Shown in pieces: positions 16,362 to 48,435 of a stretch of DNA of 64,000 nucleotides; within the stretch, counting starts at the first letter, position 1; every line of letters begins with the position of its first letter. Both the position numbers and the translations under genes were made by a program. Origin of the DNA: Dictyostelium discoideum (Eukaryota); the NCBI GenBank assembly GCA_000004695.1, contig CM000154.2, forward strand, positions 2,656,001 through 2,720,000, in the 5' to 3' direction. Below the pieces are notes generated by a model. It saw only the letters and a program-made list of their open reading frames with translations, searched no databases and was not told the DNA's origin.

Positions 16362-17274
16362 ATGAAAAATGGTTTTTTATTTTTAACGATAATTTTATTA
16401 TTATCAATTTTCATTACATTTTCAAATTCTCAAAATTTGTCAAATTTGGAACAAAATTGTTTGACGAATTTGGGAAATAAAATTTCGAAATATAAAGATC
16501 CAAATTCATGGTGTTCCTCTTTTTCTTGTGCTCTTTCAGCTGATTCATCAAATTTATATATAGAAACATTAAAAATTGAAAACACAAATGGAGTCACAGC
16601 AGCTTTAAATTACACTGACTTTAGTTGTTTCTCTAATTTGACAAAATTGTAATTATTGACTTTTTATTTTAATTTTTATTATTTTTACTATATTACTAAT
16701 AAAATTCTTTAAATAGAGATATTACTCATTATACCTTAAACTATAGTTCCTTTTTTGGTGATATTTCAGAAAAAGGCTTGGCAGGTAAGTAACACTTTAA
16801 ATAATTAATTAAAATAAAAAAAGACAATATTAATAGATTTTTAAATAATTTAATTATAGTTTCAATTGTTTTAAATCAAACCTTTAATTTTGATTTCCCA
16901 AAATTGGTAAACTTTCCAACAACTTCATTGTATGTATTTTTAAAAAAATATATATATATACTCAATTTCATGATCAAACAAAATATTAATATTAATTAAT
17001 TCATAAAGAGAATTTGTTTTGGCATATACACCAGGTACTATTGGACAATTTAATGCAAGTTCTTTTGGAAATTTAAAATCATTAATTTTCACCACCAATC
17101 CTCTACTACCATCAATTCCAGCATCAATGACTCTTCCCACTTTATACAACGACTTAAATTCAAACCAACAGATTCAATTAGATAAATTTCGATTTGTGAC
17201 CAGACAAGTTCCAAATCTTAATTATTTTAACATTACTGAATTGTATGTACATTTGTTTATTCCAAAAATATAAG

Positions 17275-17332
<58 letters not shown>

Positions 17333-17699
17333 TATTATTAATAAATATTACTCTCTTTTAGGTATTTAGTATTAGAACCAACTATAACAGGGACTGGAGA
17401 TTTCAACTCTTTTACCAATGTCCAAATTTTTACTTTAATCGTGGATACAGACACACAGGTTATTGGTTTCCCCAGTATTTTTACATTAAGTAATAATATC
17501 ATACAAGCGTAGGTAATCATCTTTTAAATAATTTATTTCAATAATAAAATAAATAAAATAAAATATTCAAATAATTAACATTTTTTAATAAAATTTTAAA
17601 GTGAATTAAAAGCGAAATTTTCCCCTCCTGCTTCCATAATTGATATTACACCTTCTTCAAAACTTAGATCTTTGTGAGTTATTTGCAACAAACAAAAAA

Positions 17700-17738
<39 letters not shown>

Positions 17739-20700
17739 AATTTATCTTTTATTATTTTCTAACAATAAATTTTCAATAGGAGATATATACAAATTAATAC
17801 AGGAATTTCAAGTAGTTTTGCTTATCCACCTCCAAATGGTTTCCCTTTAATTCTTCCAACTTCAATTGAATTAATCTTTTTTCCAAATACTGGTTTTAAT
17901 TTACCTCAATTAAATATATTACCAAACTTAGGTTATTTAGATTTTTCAGCAAATTCAATTACATCATTACCTGCAAATATTGGCCCTTCCTTAAAATATC
18001 TGTAAGTTTAATAATTATTATATCTATTGTAAAAAAAAAAAAATTATTAAACAATCCTTTTATTTATTTATTTTTTTTTTTTTTTTTTTTTAATAGCGAA
18101 CTTTCAGAGAATAGTATAAGTGGAACAATACCGCCTTTGTTATTTTGCAATATGCTATTGGATGTTAATAATAATAATTTTAATGGTTATTTACCAGAGT
18201 GTTTTCAATGTAATGTATTAAATACTCTTATATTAATATGATGATTTTCTTTCTAACTTTTAATTGTTTTTACAAAAAATAATAATAATAATAATAAAAT
18301 AAAATAAAGGCTATTACAATTTCCAACCAATTTTAAGTGTATTTTTTTCTGCGAATCCAAATTTAATCGTTTCAGGACCATGTACTTTAAAACCAGTACC
18401 TAATTTTAGTTTGGATCCAGTTTTAAAAACATTTAGGTTATGGGGTTCAAATCTTGGGTATGCTTATCCTACTACACCATCCAACGTTTCATTTACATTA
18501 ATTTCAATACCAAATTCTGAATTTTTTGGTACTTACAATGATATAATGACAGCATCAGTAATAGAGTTTTCCTTTATGGGTTCAAGCTTTACATTACCTT
18601 TGACTCCAAACCCACCAAATATTTTCAATGTCCATTCGGATGGAGTTGCATCATTCTCATTTAATGGTCAGTATTTCACATATAACACAAGTGATGTAAC
18701 AATTACACTTAGTGGATATCCATGTCAAGTGACTTTTGCATCATTTCAAACCATAGCTTGTATGGGACCATCATTCCAAAATAGTTCTGAATTGGTTGTA
18801 AACTTTAAAATTGGAATTTATTCAACCCAAATTTCAGTGATTCTAGGTGCAGAAAGTAATAATGTTACAATGTGTACACAGAGTTGTAATCATGGTTATT
18901 GTAGTACTGTAGGTACTGTTGGCAAATGTATTTGCAATCCTGGATATGCAGGTAATGATTGTTCCGTTTCAAATCCATGCTCTTCAACTTGTTTGAATGG
19001 TGGAAATTGTGATTATTTTAAAGGTATATGTAATTGTACCTCAAGTTGGAGTGGTACTGATTGTGGAACACCATATATTGAATGTGCCAATGAATGTAAG
19101 AATGGTCAATGTAATTATCAAACTGGTATGTGTTTATGTAATATAGGTTGGGGAGGAACAATTTGTAATGAATTTTCACTTGATTGTCCAAAGAATTGTA
19201 GTTTTTCAAGTGGGGGTGGTGTTTGTAATCGTACAGTAGGCGAATGTAAATGTAATTCAAATTATCAATCAAATGATTGTAGTATCCCATATGTTGAATG
19301 TAATAGTAATTGTAATATTAATTCAAATGTTGGAAATAAATGTAATAATCAAACCGGTATTTGTATTTGTTCTACCGATTGGCAAGGTTTATCTTGTGAA
19401 TCACCAAGTCATTATATCTCATCAATTCAACCAACAAACACTGATGGTGGATTTGTTTTAATTTATGGATGGTTTGGTGGTAGTGGTTATCATAATAATC
19501 CTATGGTTACAATTGGTACACTTGAATGTAAAATAAATTCAATCAATGAATCTTTGATTAATTGTACAATTGGTAGTGGTTCTGGTACTAAATCAGTTTC
19601 AGTACAACAAAATGGTTATTCATATGTTGGAAAGGATATTTTCCATTATACTGATATTACTTATAAATGTCCAAATGATTGCTCTGGACATGGTACTTGT
19701 AACAAATTAATTGGTCAATGTAAATGTTTTAGTGGATGGGGTGGTTTTGATTGTAATGGTAAAAATATAGTTCAATCATCTTCAACAACAACAACTACTA
19801 CTACTACTACTACTACAACATCAGCATCAACAACAGCAACTACAACATCTGGCAATACAACACCAGAGCCAACACAAGAACCAATTGTAATTCCAGAGAC
19901 AGTTACAACAATTAATACAACTATTGGTTCAGCTTTAATTAATAATGAAAAAACTTTATATGAAATTAAAATTTCAAAAATTGTTGAATTAGATTTCAAT
20001 GGTGAATCAGTTAAAACTATAAATTTACAAGAGAAATGGAATGTTGAAATAATAGCAGAAAATAATACATACATTTTCAAACAAACATTAAATGGTACAA
20101 ATTGTACAGTAACCTATTCAATTGAAGAGGTTAAAACCACTAGAGATTATAATTTTGCAGGATTGGATTTAACATTGGATGCTGGTGGTATTAAAATCAC
20201 AGTTAAAATTGAAAATTATCAATATTTAAATTCATTAAATACATTACAACTTCAAATTGAATCATTAATTGGTTCAACAGCAAAAGACCAAAATGATGAT
20301 GAAGATAACGAATGTAATAAAGAGAATTTATCAGTAGATACAAATGAAATGGACAAAGATCAATTATTAAATTATATAACAATTTCAAAAGATCAAAAAA
20401 TATTATATGGTAGATTTATTAATAGAGTCGTCAGTGATACTAGACCAACATTTATTACAACATCAGTAGTTTCAAATAATGGAAATTCAGTTATACTTGG
20501 TTTAAATTTACCACATTGTATAAATTCATGTTTAATTGATCCTGGTATGTTATTTTTTTTTTTTTTTTCCAAATTCCCTAATTTACTAATTTTTTTTTTT
20601 TTTTTTTTTAAGATTTCTCTGTTTTAGTTTCTTCATCTTATAAAACCTGTGATAATTCTAAAGATTCAGGAAGACCAGCTTGGCTTTTACCAGTTGCTAT

Positions 20701-20833
20701 AGTTGTACCATGTGTTGTTGTGGCTTCAATAATTATAATCGGTGCTGTAATATATAGAAAAAATAGAATGGCAATTTTAGTTGCAAAGAATAAATATTCA
20801 TTTAGTCTTAGAAAAATGTCTAAAAAAAATTAA
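16362..20833 (+). CDS. Receptor-like type-I membrane protein: signal peptide, plant-type LRRs, multiple EGF/tenascin-like Cys repeats, Thr-rich stalk, one TM helix, short cytoplasmic tail. Ten exons: 16362..16648, 16717..16784, 16860..16929, 17009..17242, 17362..17508, 17602..17673, 17780..18001, 18097..18209, 18310..20544, 20613..20833
   Basis: Signal peptide MKNGFLFLTIILLLSIFITFSNS. LRR consensus appears, for example in LSENSISGTIPPLLFCNMLLDVNNNNFNGYLPECF and L.YLDFSANSITSLPANIGPSLKYL. The large exon carries about 8 C-x-C-x(2-5)-G-x(2)-C EGF-like units and a TTTTTTTTTTTTSASTTATTTSGNTTPEPT stalk. The last exon encodes the TM VAIVVPCVVVASIIIIGAVIY followed by RKNRMAILVAKNKYSFSLRKMSKKN and a stop. 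All small exons are phase-2 symmetric with GTAAGT/GTATGT/GTGAGT/GTAGGT donors, total 3669 nt giving 1222 aa. The last acceptor could instead be 20627. Confidence 0.65.
17275..17329. repeat. poly(dA) tract of about 55 nt inside an intron of the LRR-EGF gene
   Basis: Uninterrupted A run between donor GTATGT at 17243 and the acceptor at 17361. Confidence 0.9.
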
Positions 20834-21136
20834 ATTATTAAATAATTAATAATAAAAATAATAAAATTAAAAAAATAATTATTTATTTTCTAAATTAAAT
20901 AATAAAACAATAATAATAATTTATAATATAAAAATATTGATTATTAATGGTAATAATAATAAAAGAAAATTCATTTTTAAAAAAGCATTTTGATCAAATT
21001 TTCTTTTTATTTTTTTTTTTTTTTTTAATTTTTTTTTTTTTTTTTTCGTTTAAACTAAATTAATTTTTATTTTTTTTTATTTTTTATTTTTTATTTTTTT
21101 ATTTATTTTTTTGCATACTTACATGTAAAAACAATC

Positions 21137-44735: not shown

Positions 44736-45855
44736 ATGAATAATAATATTAAATATGTATTTTTAATAATTGTAACATTGGTATTTATTAATAATGTCTA
44801 TTCAGAATCAACAAAAATTGGAGTTTTAAATAAAGATGATTGTAAAAATTAATTTTTCACCACTTATAAAAGAAAATAAAAAAAATAAAATTGTGTTACG
44901 GAGTAGAAATTAACTTTTATTTTTTTTTTTTTTGTTGGTGAAATAAAAAAAATTAAAAAATAAAAACTATATAGATGATTATATAGATAAATTAGTTAAA
45001 GATTTATTCAAGGAAAACCCTTTTCCAATTTTAAATGTAGATAAAGATAAAACCTATTATGACTACTGTTCAAAACCATTATTTAAATGTAATAGTGAAA
45101 CTGGTCATTTATCAGGAATGTAAGAGTAATTAAATTATTATTATTATTATTATTATTAATATAGGATACTAATTTCATTCTTCAAATGGGAAAAATTAGG
45201 CATTTAACATATGACGCAGATTTGTGCAAGATCAAATCATTGAAAAATGAAATCTCAAAATACGATTTTACTATCATGGATAGTATTGAACTTTCATTAT
45301 TTCCATTTGGTTCTCCAAAAATTTTAAGCAAACTCAATGCTCGTACAGTGTAGGTATTTAATTTAATTTATTTTATTTTATTTTGTTTTGCTTTATTAAC
45401 TTTTATTAATAACCACCAATTTTTTTTTTTTATTTATAGGAAAATATCACGATGTCATATTGATTCGCTTTTAATTGAACCAAACCCAAATACAAGAGAT
45501 TTGTAAGTATAAATTCTTTAAATTTAGCGATTGATTAATTAATACTAATGAATTATTTTTTTTTTTTTTTTTTTATTTTTTTTTTTTTTTTTTTCTTTCA
45601 AATTATTCAGATTTGTTGACTCAAATGACAATGTTAAAGTAGTGATGAAAACTATGGGAATGATTGAAAATTTGTGAGTATAGTTAGCTTTTTGATATTA
45701 TGCTGAAAAAAAATTTCTTTATCTAACAAAAAAAAAAAAAAAAAATTATAGCACTCTCACAAGTTCATTTGTAAGAAATTCATCAAAAACCATTACATTT
45801 GAAGTAAATGAAGACGAAGATGAATTTAATTTTAAAAATTGGTATGTTCACTAAA

Positions 45856-45946
<91 letters not shown>

Positions 45947-46227
45947 TTTTCATTCTTTTTGCAATAATTATTAATATCCACCCATTTTCTTTTATTCTTT
46001 TTTTCAAAATAAATACCAACAATAGGGACGTTTATTCAACAAATGTTCCTCTTTTCAAATATTTTCATTTTGATACATTGTAAAGTATAATAAAACCTTT
46101 TTTTTTTTTTTATTTTTAAAAAAACTAACTTTTAATTTCTCTATAGAAAACTTACAATTTTATCAAATGAAGGTCTTGACAAAACTAATAAATTTGAAGA
46201 CTATACTGAGATTACAAATTTGTAAGT

Positions 46228-46260
<33 letters not shown>

Positions 46261-46739
46261 CTTTTCTTTTTTTTTTTTTTTTTTTTTCTTTTTTCTTCTA
46301 AACAAATTTTTAATAACTTCTCTCTCTTTTTTTTTTTAAAAGTTATTTGTATAAATATAAATATTTTGATTTTGATCCTATTCCATTCCCAAGTGAAATT
46401 TTTATAGATAATCAAGAAACCATGTTTTTTGGTACAACATTTAGAATTTCACCTCCAAATGATTATTTGGATATTTCAAAAGCATCTTCCTTACTTGGAT
46501 TGTAAGTATAAAAAAAAAAAAAAAGAAAAGAGAAAAAAAAAAAATTAAAATAAAAATTGTTTTTGTTGTATATTAATTTTTTTTTTTTTATTTTTTTTTC
46601 AGGTCATTCTCAAATGCAGAGGGTTTTTTTTATAACGATAACAACACACTCCAATTCCCATTTTCAAAATTCCCTGAAGAACTTGATCAATTGTAAGTAG
46701 TATTACATTTTAACCATTAAATAAATACAGTTATTAATA

Positions 46740-46770
<31 letters not shown>

Positions 46771-48435
46771 TAGTTTTTATAAAAATAACAACCAAAGTAC
46801 TCCACTTCCAGATATTCAAAAACTCTTTGAAAATACTAAAATTCGTTATTTGTAAGTATAAACATTTTTTTTTATTTTTTTTTTATTTTTTTTTTAATCT
46901 CCTTTATTTGGTTATTAATTTTTTTTTTTTCTTTTTAAAAAGAGTTTTACCAAATAATAAATTTAGTGGTAAGATTAGTCCAATTAACATTCCAAGTTTA
47001 ATAAATTTGTAAGTAAAAATTATTTTTATTATTATTGTTATTATTTTTTTTTTTAAAAAAATATAAAAATTTATTAATAATAATTTTTAATTTTAGAGAT
47101 TTATCAAATAATGAACTTGTAGGTAAATTAGGAGATTGGATTTGTGGTATTGATAGTTTAAATGTTCAACATAATATTCTTCAAGGTAATGTTCCAATTT
47201 GTAAAATATGTTATGGTAGTGGTCTTTCATTGATTGAGAATAATAATTATTTCGATAGTAGAGAATGCAACGAAACAATTCTAGAAAGTTTAGACATAAC
47301 TACTAAGGAATATAATATTTCAAAAACAAATGAAGATAAGGATGAAGTTTATTCTATGATCTATGAATATATAGTTAAAGGTGAAGGATTGGCTTATGGT
47401 GAACATAAATTTACAACAAACCTTAATGATTATAATTATACTTTAGGAGGTTGGATTCAAGTTGGGAATACCTATAAACTTAATACCACTAAAATGGTTG
47501 AATCTATTGATTTCTTTTTCAACACATCGTCCCCTTTTTCTGCTACATTTGCAACTAAACCAGATTCAAAACCAAGAATTAACTCAATTATAAAAACAAC
47601 TGATGAAGTCAAGGATCCAAAAACCGATAAATACACAATTGAAGGTATATTTTTCTCTTCATTAATATCTGATGTTTCAGTTTCATTGCTTGAAGAGGGT
47701 GATGACGAATACCTTTCTCATCCATGTAAAGTATCAGAGTCAACATTCTATTCAATCACTGCATCATGTCCAAATGAATTACTTTTAAATTTAATTCAAG
47801 TTAAAGTGGGTCAACTTGATACTGGTCGTGTTGAATTCAATTCATCTTCGTCCTATAGTAAAATGTGTAAATCGGAATGTAGTGATAAAGTAAAAGCAAA
47901 TGGTGGAGGTTGCAATTATGATGTTGGTCTTTGTAAATGTCATAAAAGTAATTGTAGATCGGTTACTGTCGAGGTCACTGGTCAATGTCTCAATGATGAT
48001 AATGGTGATGCCTATTGTAGTTGTAACGAAAGATGGGAGGGTACCCTTTGCGAGATCGGAACTTGTTTTGGTTATGATGGTTGTAATTCTCCAAAAGGTG
48101 AATGTGATAAAGCAACATCAATGTGTCATTGTTTAGATAAAAATTTTAATAATGATTATTGTAATGGTACTAGAACTATTCCAGATGGTAAAAATAACAA
48201 TAATAATAATAACAACAACGGTGGTGATGGAGAAAATGGTCCATCATATGCCGTTGGAGTTATCTTCCTTTTCGTCGTTATCATTGGTGTTGCTATCTTT
48301 ATCTATAAAAGATATATTGATGGTTCCTCAAAATCAACCACTTCAAATGGTGTCAAATTTAAAGTTTTAAGTTCAAAACAAGAAGATGATGAAGAAGATA
48401 ATTTATCAACAACAAGAAAAGGTTATGAAGAATAG
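44736..48435 (+). CDS. Second receptor-like membrane protein, paralogous to 16362..20833 (signal peptide, divergent repeats ending in plant-type LRRs, EGF-like Cys repeats, TM, cytoplasmic tail). Thirteen exons: 44736..44841, 44975..45119, 45200..45349, 45440..45502, 45611..45673, 45752..45841, 46026..46079, 46147..46221, 46343..46501, 46603..46692, 46774..46851, 46943..47008, 47097..48435
   Basis: Signal peptide MNNNIKYVFLIIVTLVFINNVYS. Eleven successive exons end ..TT|GTAAGT (phase 2) and restart with a single nt after AG. LRRs include LPNNKFSGKISPINIPSLINL and LSNNELVGKLGDWICGIDSLNVQHNILQGNVP. The final exon has EGF-like C.C..W.G..C units and the TM VGVIFLFVVIIGVAIFIY followed by a KRYIDGSS... 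tail. Total 2478 nt gives 825 aa, in frame throughout. The exon-3 acceptor is ambiguous (45200 chosen for frame; 45165 follows the (ATT)n tract but breaks the frame). Confidence 0.6.
45857..45950. repeat. (AAT)n of about 31 units inside an intron of the second LRR-EGF gene
   Basis: The run follows the GTATGT donor at 45842. It reads as poly-N in the ORF track but is intronic by frame analysis. Confidence 0.8.

Follow-up and report, generated by a model that had tools for sequence, protein, structure and literature searches.

The window analysed here is a stretch of 64,000 nucleotides (nt) of Dictyostelium discoideum DNA (assembly GCA_000004695.1, contig CM000154.2, positions 2,656,001 to 2,720,000 of the forward strand) with a G+C content of ∼22%, and it contains two genes that encode leucine-rich repeats (LRRs), EGF-like modules and a transmembrane (TM) segment. 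The gene under study, hereafter gene 1, extends on the + strand from an ATG at 16362 to a TAA ending at 20833 (16362..20833) and consists of 10 exons and 9 introns, with a product of 1222 amino acids (aa). The second, hereafter gene 2, is DDB_G0295675 and lies on the same strand at 44736..48435. Over 23.7 kb around gene 2, the sequence is 99.6% identical to a chromosome-scale D. discoideum assembly, which, together with the identity of gene 2 to its AX4 counterpart, places the window in the laboratory-strain (AX4/AX2) lineage. Judged by its own sequence and those of its relatives, gene 1 is a real, intact protein-coding gene of D. discoideum under purifying selection, and its product is predicted to be a type I membrane glycoprotein of 1222 aa that belongs to the dictyostelid ComC family. 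Since spliced genes of D. discoideum carry 1.9 introns on average (PMC5173251), the nine introns of gene 1 and the twelve of gene 2 are unusual for the species. Eight of the nine introns of gene 1 fall within the first 1213 nt of the coding sequence, that is, in the LRR region; the multi-exon, intron-rich structure with introns concentrated among the LRRs that a first-pass annotation of this DNA had described was thus borne out. No tRNA genes were found within the window.

The gene model was built by enumerating, from the ATG at 16362, frame-keeping GT..AG introns of low G+C content, with GTAAGT, GTATGT, GTGAGT, GTAGGT, GTAATT and GTAATG accepted as consensus-like donors. Two near-identical paths alone reached the TAA at 20831-20833; they differ at the acceptor of exon 7, where two AGs lie 3 bases apart, and a start at 17780 was chosen because exon 7 of an annotated orthologue (P0007) measures 222 nt. 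The introns are 68-119 nt long, with a G+C content of 11% as compared with 29% in the exons, and their phases are, in order, 2,1,2,2,2,2,2,1,1.

Within exon 1 (16362..16648, 287 nt) lie the coding sequences of the signal peptide (aa 1-23), of an N-terminal cap that contains Cys and of the first LRRs; the exon stops inside the codon of L96, in phase 2. At the nucleotide level, it is 99.0% identical to one orthologous locus (L001) and 84.2% identical to another (L002), with one 3-nt indel only and a gapless orthologue alignment. Intron 1 (16649..16716, 68 nt, phase 2, GTAATT..ATAG) occupies a position common to the paralogue DDB_G0289863; it measures 68, 71 and 210 nt in the window and two orthologues, and GT..AG is retained in both orthologues. 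Exons 2 (16717..16784, 68 nt) and 3 (16860..16929, 70 nt) contain one LRR each and run from phase 2 to phase 1 and from phase 1 to phase 2, respectively. The phase-1 intron 2 between them (16785..16859, 75 nt) splits V119 at the repeat position used by the other LRR introns, one nucleotide earlier. Intron 3 (16930..17008, 79 nt, phase 2) splits L142 and retains GT..AG at lengths of 79, 92 and 414 nt across the three genomes.

Exons 4 (17009..17242, 234 nt, three LRRs), 5 (17362..17508, 147 nt, two LRRs), 6 (17602..17673, 72 nt, one LRR) and 7 (17780..18001, 222 nt, three LRRs) are symmetric, with phase 2 at both ends. The introns that separate them are all in phase 2: intron 4 (17243..17361, 119 nt) splits L220 at a position common to four paralogue lineages, intron 5 (17509..17601, 93 nt) splits A269, and intron 6 (17674..17779, 106 nt, with a GTGAGT donor) splits L293 at a position common to DDB_G0289863 and gene 2. 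Intron 7 (18002..18096, 95 nt, phase 2), whose position is also found in these two genes, splits L367 of LKYLELSENSISGTIP. The plant-type LRRs end, and a C-terminal Cys cap starts, in exon 8 (18097..18209, 113 nt, phase 2 to phase 1); it is followed by intron 8 (18210..18309, 100 nt, phase 1), which splits C405 and is not present in DDB_G0289863. Exon 9 (18310..20544, 2235 nt) covers the protein from the beta-sandwich region through most of the ComC supersandwich domain, and its indels relative to the orthologues are of 15, 18 and 3 nt only. Intron 9 (20545..20612, 68 nt, phase 1) splits D1150 in LIDP[D]FSVLVS. Exon 10 (20613..20833, 221 nt), 94-97% identical to its orthologues at the nucleotide level, contributes the remainder of the supersandwich domain, the TM helix (20678-20755) and a 25-aa basic tail, with the stop codon at 20831-20833. 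Homopolymer tracts lie in intron 4 (A66 at 17264-17329) and intron 6 (A48 at 17690-17737), and in L001 one indel in each of these two introns, of 27 and 39 nt, respectively, accounts for the difference in length from the window.

The comparison with relatives supports this model. The predicted protein is 92, 88 and 81% identical to annotated proteins of diverged Dictyostelium genomes, with zero gaps at the nine junctions. Mapping of the orthologue P0007 onto its own locus gave exons of 287, 68, 70, 234, 147, 72, 222, 110, 2220 and 221 nt with identical phases; exons 8 and 9 are shorter than those of gene 1 by 3 and 15 nt, and all other sizes are equal. In a three-way genomic alignment of the window, the orthologous locus of a diverged ‘D. 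discoideum’ isolate (L001) and the D. citrinum locus, each exon has the same length or differs by a multiple of 3, and all nine introns are bounded by GT..AG in both relatives and vary freely in length, with indels that are not multiples of 3. The ratio of non-synonymous to synonymous substitution rates (dN/dS) is 0.37 and 0.28 for the gene as a whole, 0.40 and 0.26 when only the LRR exons are considered, and well below 1 in every domain. Exonic indels confined to multiples of 3, together with dN/dS values of 0.26-0.40, indicate that the small exons are coding and under purifying selection. In the window, as in five or more other genomes, the reading frame runs uninterrupted through the 10 exons. 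Hyper-polymorphism at gene 1, considered because isolates are 88-93% identical in protein, was rejected since the entire 25-kb neighbourhood is 85-92% identical in nucleotide sequence; the diverged ‘D. discoideum’ isolates have been described as diverged or cryptic lineages (bioRxiv 10.1101/2025.08.01.668227).

From N- to C-terminus, the gene 1 product comprises a signal peptide, a Cys-capped array of ∼13 LRRs, a putative beta-sandwich region (aa ∼430-591; 18384-18869), five tandem EGF modules (EGF1-5, aa 593-767; 18873-19397), an IPT/TIG domain (aa 774-846; 19416-19634), a sixth EGF module (aa 858-886; 19668-19754), a Thr-rich linker (aa 894-925; 19776-19871), the ComC supersandwich domain (from aa 935; from 19899), a TM helix (aa 1172-1197) and the 25-residue tail, in which nine residues are basic. 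The beta-sandwich region and the linker lie within exon 9, as does most of the supersandwich domain, and the TM helix is in exon 10. For the supersandwich domain, Pfam ComC_SSD (PF22933) matches aa 935-1154, a stretch of 220 aa, at E=6.1e-63 and over profile positions 2-222 of 222. Pfam also recognizes the EGF array (EGF_TEN, E=8e-23; EGF_2, E=3.5e-16; also EGF_Teneurin) and TIG in two stretches, the better of which is that between EGF5 and EGF6, and the cysteine pattern resolves six EGF modules of six cysteines each. These results uphold the LRRs, EGF repeats, single TM helix and 25-aa basic tail of the first-pass annotation, reduce its estimate of about eight EGF repeats to six, and add the TIG domain and the 220-aa supersandwich domain that it had overlooked; of its Thr-rich stalk, the linker stands but the region that follows is the supersandwich domain. 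A Pfam search found no match to Beta-sand_ComC_1st/2nd (PF24142/PF24143) and no protein kinase domain in gene 1.

The LRRs of gene 1 are irregular and only partly of the plant type, most repeats being 17-31 residues long; the last ones, which read LKYLELSENSISGTIP, correspond to the plant-type consensus. In a sequence search of the PDB, the N-terminal 400 residues matched solved LRR ectodomains (PSKR1 at 2e-10, TMM, SERK1, BAK1, TLR9 and LRRC8), a plant LRR kinase structure being aligned over query positions 117-379, which correspond to aa 140-402 of gene 1, and the PSKR1, SERK1 and BAK1 matches cover exon 8. Thus, where the first-pass annotation had expected domain searches to return both LRR and EGF, the EGF part was met with strong Pfam matches but the LRR part came from the PDB. 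AlphaFold2 models were used solely for strand periodicity and as a weak fold check. In the low-confidence model of gene 1, short strands recur every 21-31 residues, coincident with or next to the intron-split residues; beta strands are also modelled at aa 437-591, where the predicted local distance difference test score (pLDDT) is <50, and the top PDB matches in a fold search with these weak models are all LRR solenoids. A word-indexed homologue search with aa 24-592 alone gave no matches, low-complexity words having probably swamped the candidate list.

Several other affiliations were considered and rejected. Gene 1 is not a member of the plant LRR kinases, as no kinase domain was found by Pfam and the tail has only 25 aa. 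It was not placed among the Tgr (IPT/TIG-array) adhesion proteins, as it has two TIG stretches only and LRR, EGF and supersandwich parts dominate the ectodomain. Neither FN3 and fibrinogen nor teneurin-specific domains were found by Pfam, which excludes it from the tenascins and teneurins; the EGF_TEN and EGF_Teneurin matches reflect EGF subtype only.

The ComC family is defined by the Pfam entries LRR_ComC (PF24141), Beta-sand_ComC_1st/2nd and ComC_SSD. A search for the supersandwich domain recovered 437 representative proteins, in nearly all of which the domain lies ∼70 aa from the C-terminus. Among ten of these matches whose source names were looked up, eight carry dictyostelid names and one is a Synstelium record, and none carries a non-dictyostelid name. 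In an alignment of 44 family members, ComC_SSD was found in all, EGF and TIG in most and LRR_ComC in 23. Over aa 5-691, gene 1 aligns to one member (P0019) at E=2e-37, and aa 87-387 of that protein match LRR_ComC. In a D. purpureum ComC-like protein (P0096), LRR_ComC is followed by two beta-sandwiches and then by EGFs, TIG and the supersandwich domain, and the order of parts is the same in gene 1: signal peptide, LRR, putative beta-sandwich, EGF array, TIG, EGF, supersandwich, TM and short tail. Gene 1, DDB_G0289863 and the D. purpureum ComC-like gene all carry a phase-1 intron at LIDP[D]FSVL, in the stretch that separates the supersandwich domain from the TM helix. The differences are as follows: gene 1 has 6 EGF modules, whereas EGF matches extend over ∼400 residues (aa 634-1042) in the D. 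purpureum protein; its LRR and beta-sandwich parts are too diverged for the ComC-specific Pfam models; and it has seven LRR-region introns versus two. By sequence and domain order, gene 1 is therefore a shorter and diverged ComC-family member rather than a new architecture. The annotated D. purpureum gene (GL871229.1, L008) spans 9.6 kb, including a 4328-nt ‘intron’, and its locus contains 156 N; this ‘intron’ is probably an assembly gap or an annotation artefact.

The function of the gene 1 protein can be addressed only tentatively. The most plausible role, to which we attach somewhat less than even confidence, would be that of a cell-surface adhesion or recognition molecule that needs partners for signalling, a role suggested by the absence of a cytoplasmic enzymatic domain. 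In this view, which follows the role of comC in developmental cell-cell communication that Kibler et al. in 2003 reportedly found, the LRR-EGF ectodomain would recognize a binding partner and leave any signalling to co-receptors. With no recognizable cytoplasmic signalling domain, the term ‘receptor-like’ is for gene 1 an architectural label only. The comC gene has been listed among developmentally essential genes, as one that ‘has EGF domains’ and whose product is secreted/transmembrane (PMC4931340). A literature search returned nothing usable on DDB_G0295675 or DDB_G0289863, nor on comC together with lagC/tgrC1.

The introns of the LRR region obey a position rule. All seven interrupt the LxL strand motif within the codon for its first hydrophobic residue, six of them in phase 2 and one (intron 2) shifted by 1 nt; the junction contexts are TK[L]DIT, LA[V]SIV, TS[L]EFV, TE[L]YLV, IQ[A]ELK, RS[L]RYI and KY[L]ELS. 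Six of the seven fall on a codon that starts a hydrophobic-x-hydrophobic triplet, for which 15% of codons qualify (P=7e-5). In gene 2, the corresponding count is 10 of 11 (P=5e-9), and phase 2 is found in 11 of 12 introns (P=5e-5). The phase bias of gene 1 alone is marginal (6/9 in phase 2, P=0.04). When only LRR introns are counted, phase 2 accounts for 6/7 in gene 1, 11/11 in gene 2 and 6/6 in DDB_G0289863. The statement of the first-pass annotation that every small exon is in phase 2 at both ends did not hold, as only exons 4-7 of gene 1 are symmetric and exons 2, 3 and 8 are asymmetric (2->1, 1->2 and 2->1). Its picture of one repeat per exon fails for gene 1, where it applies to three of seven LRR exons (exons 2, 3 and 6, of 68, 70 and 72 nt), exons 4, 5 and 7 containing 3, 2 and 3 repeats; it is a better fit to gene 2, where eight of ten symmetric exons contain one repeat.

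The same exon logic in gene 2, also predicted by the first-pass annotation, was confirmed. Its 13-exon model (825 aa, intron phases 1 and then 2 eleven times) gives a product 100% identical to the AX4 protein of DDB_G0295675 (P0008), with identical annotated exon sizes. The exon structure also agrees with the D. citrinum and D. firmibasis orthologues, and in a run of ten successive exons every length is a multiple of 3. Gene 2 encodes LRRs, a putative beta-sandwich, EGF-like modules, a TM segment and an acidic tail; Pfam found no TIG and no ComC supersandwich domain, and the match to Beta-sand_ComC_2nd is weak (E=0.009). Gene 2 is a distant paralogue of gene 1: the BLASTP alignment, which runs from the LRRs into the EGFs, covers 547 aa with 25% identity and has an E-value of 1e-16. 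Gene 2 evolves much faster, protein identity being 75% versus 88% for gene 1 in the same isolate and ∼60% versus 81% in D. citrinum, with dN/dS of 0.53-0.57, and a gene 2 orthologue is listed for none of three diverged isolates. Its intron 6 (45842-46025, 184 nt) is largely a long (ATA)n microsatellite.

The closest AX4 paralogue of gene 1 is DDB_G0289863 (Q54GX9, ‘EGF-like domain-containing protein’), on the same chromosome. The two proteins are 31% identical over aa 1-886 of gene 1, in an alignment that starts at aa 1, and 55% identical over the C-terminal half. DDB_G0289863 has six phase-2 LRR introns at the positions of introns 1, 3, 4, 5, 6 and 7 of gene 1 and shares with it the phase-1 intron before the TM helix, but it lacks the phase-1 introns 2 and 8, and it is longer (1390 aa, with a main exon of 2786 nt versus 2235 nt). 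A third lineage (P0004), with intron phases 1,2,2,2,2,2,1, obeys the LRR intron position rule, as do DDB_G0295675 and DDB_G0289863. The comparison of intron positions among the paralogous family, suggested in the first-pass annotation, thus extended the rule to these three genes; the D. purpureum ComC-like gene has only two introns in its LRR domain. In a five-way alignment, one intron position is found in four lineages and several in two or three, and other repeat boundaries have an intron in some genes only. These shared positions point to old exon-unit duplication, as read from the alignment, and then patchy intron loss. A single alignment column separates intron 2 of gene 1 from a phase-2 intron of DDB_G0295675, and both split a Val codon, which suggests a shift of the intron by one nucleotide.

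A simple scenario could account for this pattern. The LRR array would have grown by tandem duplication of a unit made of one-LRR exon plus intron, the introns of the unit cutting, in phase 2, the first hydrophobic codon of the LxL beta-strand motif. As a phase-2 intron at a fixed codon of the repeat keeps any number of units in frame, such growth would not disturb translation. Subsequent intron loss would have merged adjacent exons into those of 2 and 3 repeats, and one intron apparently moved by 1 nt, to phase 1. Tandem Repeats Finder reported no exon-scale period, and the exon units show no likeness at the DNA level; therefore, any duplication would be ancient rather than ongoing shuffling. 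Accordingly, the exon-shuffled array proposed in the first-pass annotation is retained insofar as the recurrent LRR intron position fits frame-preserving unit duplication, but not as a process that continues, no DNA similarity being left between units. The exon pattern is an evolutionary footprint and not a mechanism in use by the cell. The simplest reading is that unit duplication produced an old array in which most repeat boundaries carried an intron, and that introns were then lost patchily, an order of events that we infer.

Overall, we consider it highly probable that gene 1 is an intact ComC-family membrane-protein gene whose LRR array arose from exon-unit duplication, followed by intron loss. 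A number of observations nevertheless weigh against one part or another of this reading. The junctions of gene 1 are drawn from comparative genomics and from the predictions of other groups, and an exact look-up of the 1222-aa product in a collection of 15 billion proteins did not find it, though other AX4 proteins are present there. The Pfam LRR matches are sub-threshold (LRR_1, E=0.032; no LRR_ComC at E≤1), the AlphaFold2 models, obtained from alignments of 4-5 sequences, are poor (pLDDT 50.5 and 55.9), and the function has been deduced only from architecture and family name. No nucleotide similarity was found between exon units, a direct-repeat search of both LRR regions having returned poly-A/poly-T matches only. 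One of the two LRR introns of the D. purpureum ComC-like gene sits at a different point of the repeat, and duplication and repeated intron gain at equivalent sites are inseparable by sequence alone. The missing full-length record and the sub-threshold LRR matches would also fit a gene restricted to the long open reading frame (ORF) at 18310-20833, with the small exons of 16362-18209 belonging to a separate transcript or being non-coding. We regard this as very improbable: the long ORF alone has neither a start context nor a signal peptide, the small exons combine dN/dS values of 0.26-0.40 with indels of multiples of 3 only, unlike the introns between them, the orthologue annotations join the small exons to the long ORF, and the alignment with DDB_G0289863, one protein, starts at residue 1 of gene 1 and extends through its EGF region. 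We regard it as equally improbable that gene 1 is a decaying pseudogene copy of a ComC-family gene. An AX4 protein record is missing from the collection and the ComC family is large, with turnover, but in the window and in at least five further genomes none of the 10 exons breaks the frame, the splice sites are conserved and dN/dS is well below 1 for every domain.

An alternative to unit duplication that deserves more attention, although we judge it unlikely, is that the recurrent phase-2 introns were gained independently at a favoured site of pre-existing repeats, or were selected because the exon then corresponds to a structural unit. It would agree with the loss of DNA similarity between units, with the near absence of LRR introns from the D. 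purpureum ComC-like gene, and with the two phase-1 introns of gene 1 that are not in its closest paralogue, which show that intron turnover occurs. Convergence could likewise be the reason why rice LRR kinases use an identical position and phase (PMC3050792) and why phase 2 is reported for LRR genes of Tetrahymena (PMC6564038). Against independent gain, the exonic bases before the introns are TT, AT, GT or GC (codons for L, F, M, V and A), at least three positions are common to paralogues that are only 25% identical, and one position is found in four lineages, for which inheritance and loss are simpler. In our judgement, the pre-intron bases are unlike an AG|G proto-splice site. Duplication of exon units followed by intron loss is therefore the reading that we prefer.

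Next to gene 1, the diverged isolate carries a further ∼6.8 kb between the gene 1 orthologue and cox11 (L001 14641-21443, corresponding to ∼20854-21066 of the window). Four genes were called in it, a DHX37_C-like gene, two PARP-domain genes and a 397-aa ORF, and this stretch is not at this place in the window or in D. citrinum.

What this analysis provides is a vetted gene model and a domain map for an uncharacterized D. discoideum surface protein of the ComC family. In the AX4 reference annotation, gene 1 may be absent, split or spliced in another way, and its product may be missing from the reference protein set; AX4 records for DDB_G0295675 and DDB_G0289863 are present in the protein collection. 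These genes do not constitute a new kind of system, as descriptions of the protein family, of the domains and of the exon logic already exist. Their interest lies in a small clade of dictyostelid LRR-EGF genes that records repeat growth by frame-symmetric exon units, and in an intron position and phase that, being the same as in plant LRR kinases, add a data point to the question of ancient versus convergent LRR introns.

LRR arrays built of short frame-symmetric exons are known from other eukaryotes. In Tetrahymena, LRR exons of 90 bp number tens of thousands and lie between phase-2 introns, an extreme case of the phase-2 bias (PMC6564038), and the ROCO genes of Ectocarpus encode one LRR per 72-nt exon (PMC3341825); both arrays have been interpreted as the result of exon duplication or shuffling. 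They differ from the dictyostelid genes in being uniform in exon length, recent and massively amplified, with nucleotide similarity still present, whereas the dictyostelid exons range from 54 to 234 nt, the units show no DNA similarity and few genes are involved. The closest parallel in intron placement is found in plants. In rice LRR kinases, LRR introns lie in phase 2 at the first Leu of xxLxLxx, with one or more repeats per exon (PMC3050792), and this position and phase are identical to the gene 1 rule; multi-exon LRR domains are found in plant LRR receptor kinases and receptor-like proteins, those of the SERK/BAK1 type included. The likeness extends to the repeats themselves, as the gene 1 consensus is of the plant type (LxxLxLxxNxLSGxIP) and its best PDB sequence matches include PSKR1, TMM, SERK1 and BAK1. 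However, gene 1 has no kinase and continues with EGF, TIG and supersandwich domains, and its repeats are mostly irregular, the likeness being known at the level of the generic LRR fold. To our knowledge, such a continuation of an LRR ectodomain is not found in plants. The coincidence in repeat type and intron position is the only mildly provocative point, and it could reflect deep ancestry or convergence. It is doubtful, though conceivable, that these amoebozoan genes and the plant LRR receptor kinases, and perhaps other eukaryotic LRR genes as well, inherited one and the same phase-2 intron at the first Leu of LxL. If they did, the intron-bounded LRR exon module would be older than the split between Amoebozoa and Archaeplastida, and would have been a building block of extracellular LRR arrays since early eukaryotes.

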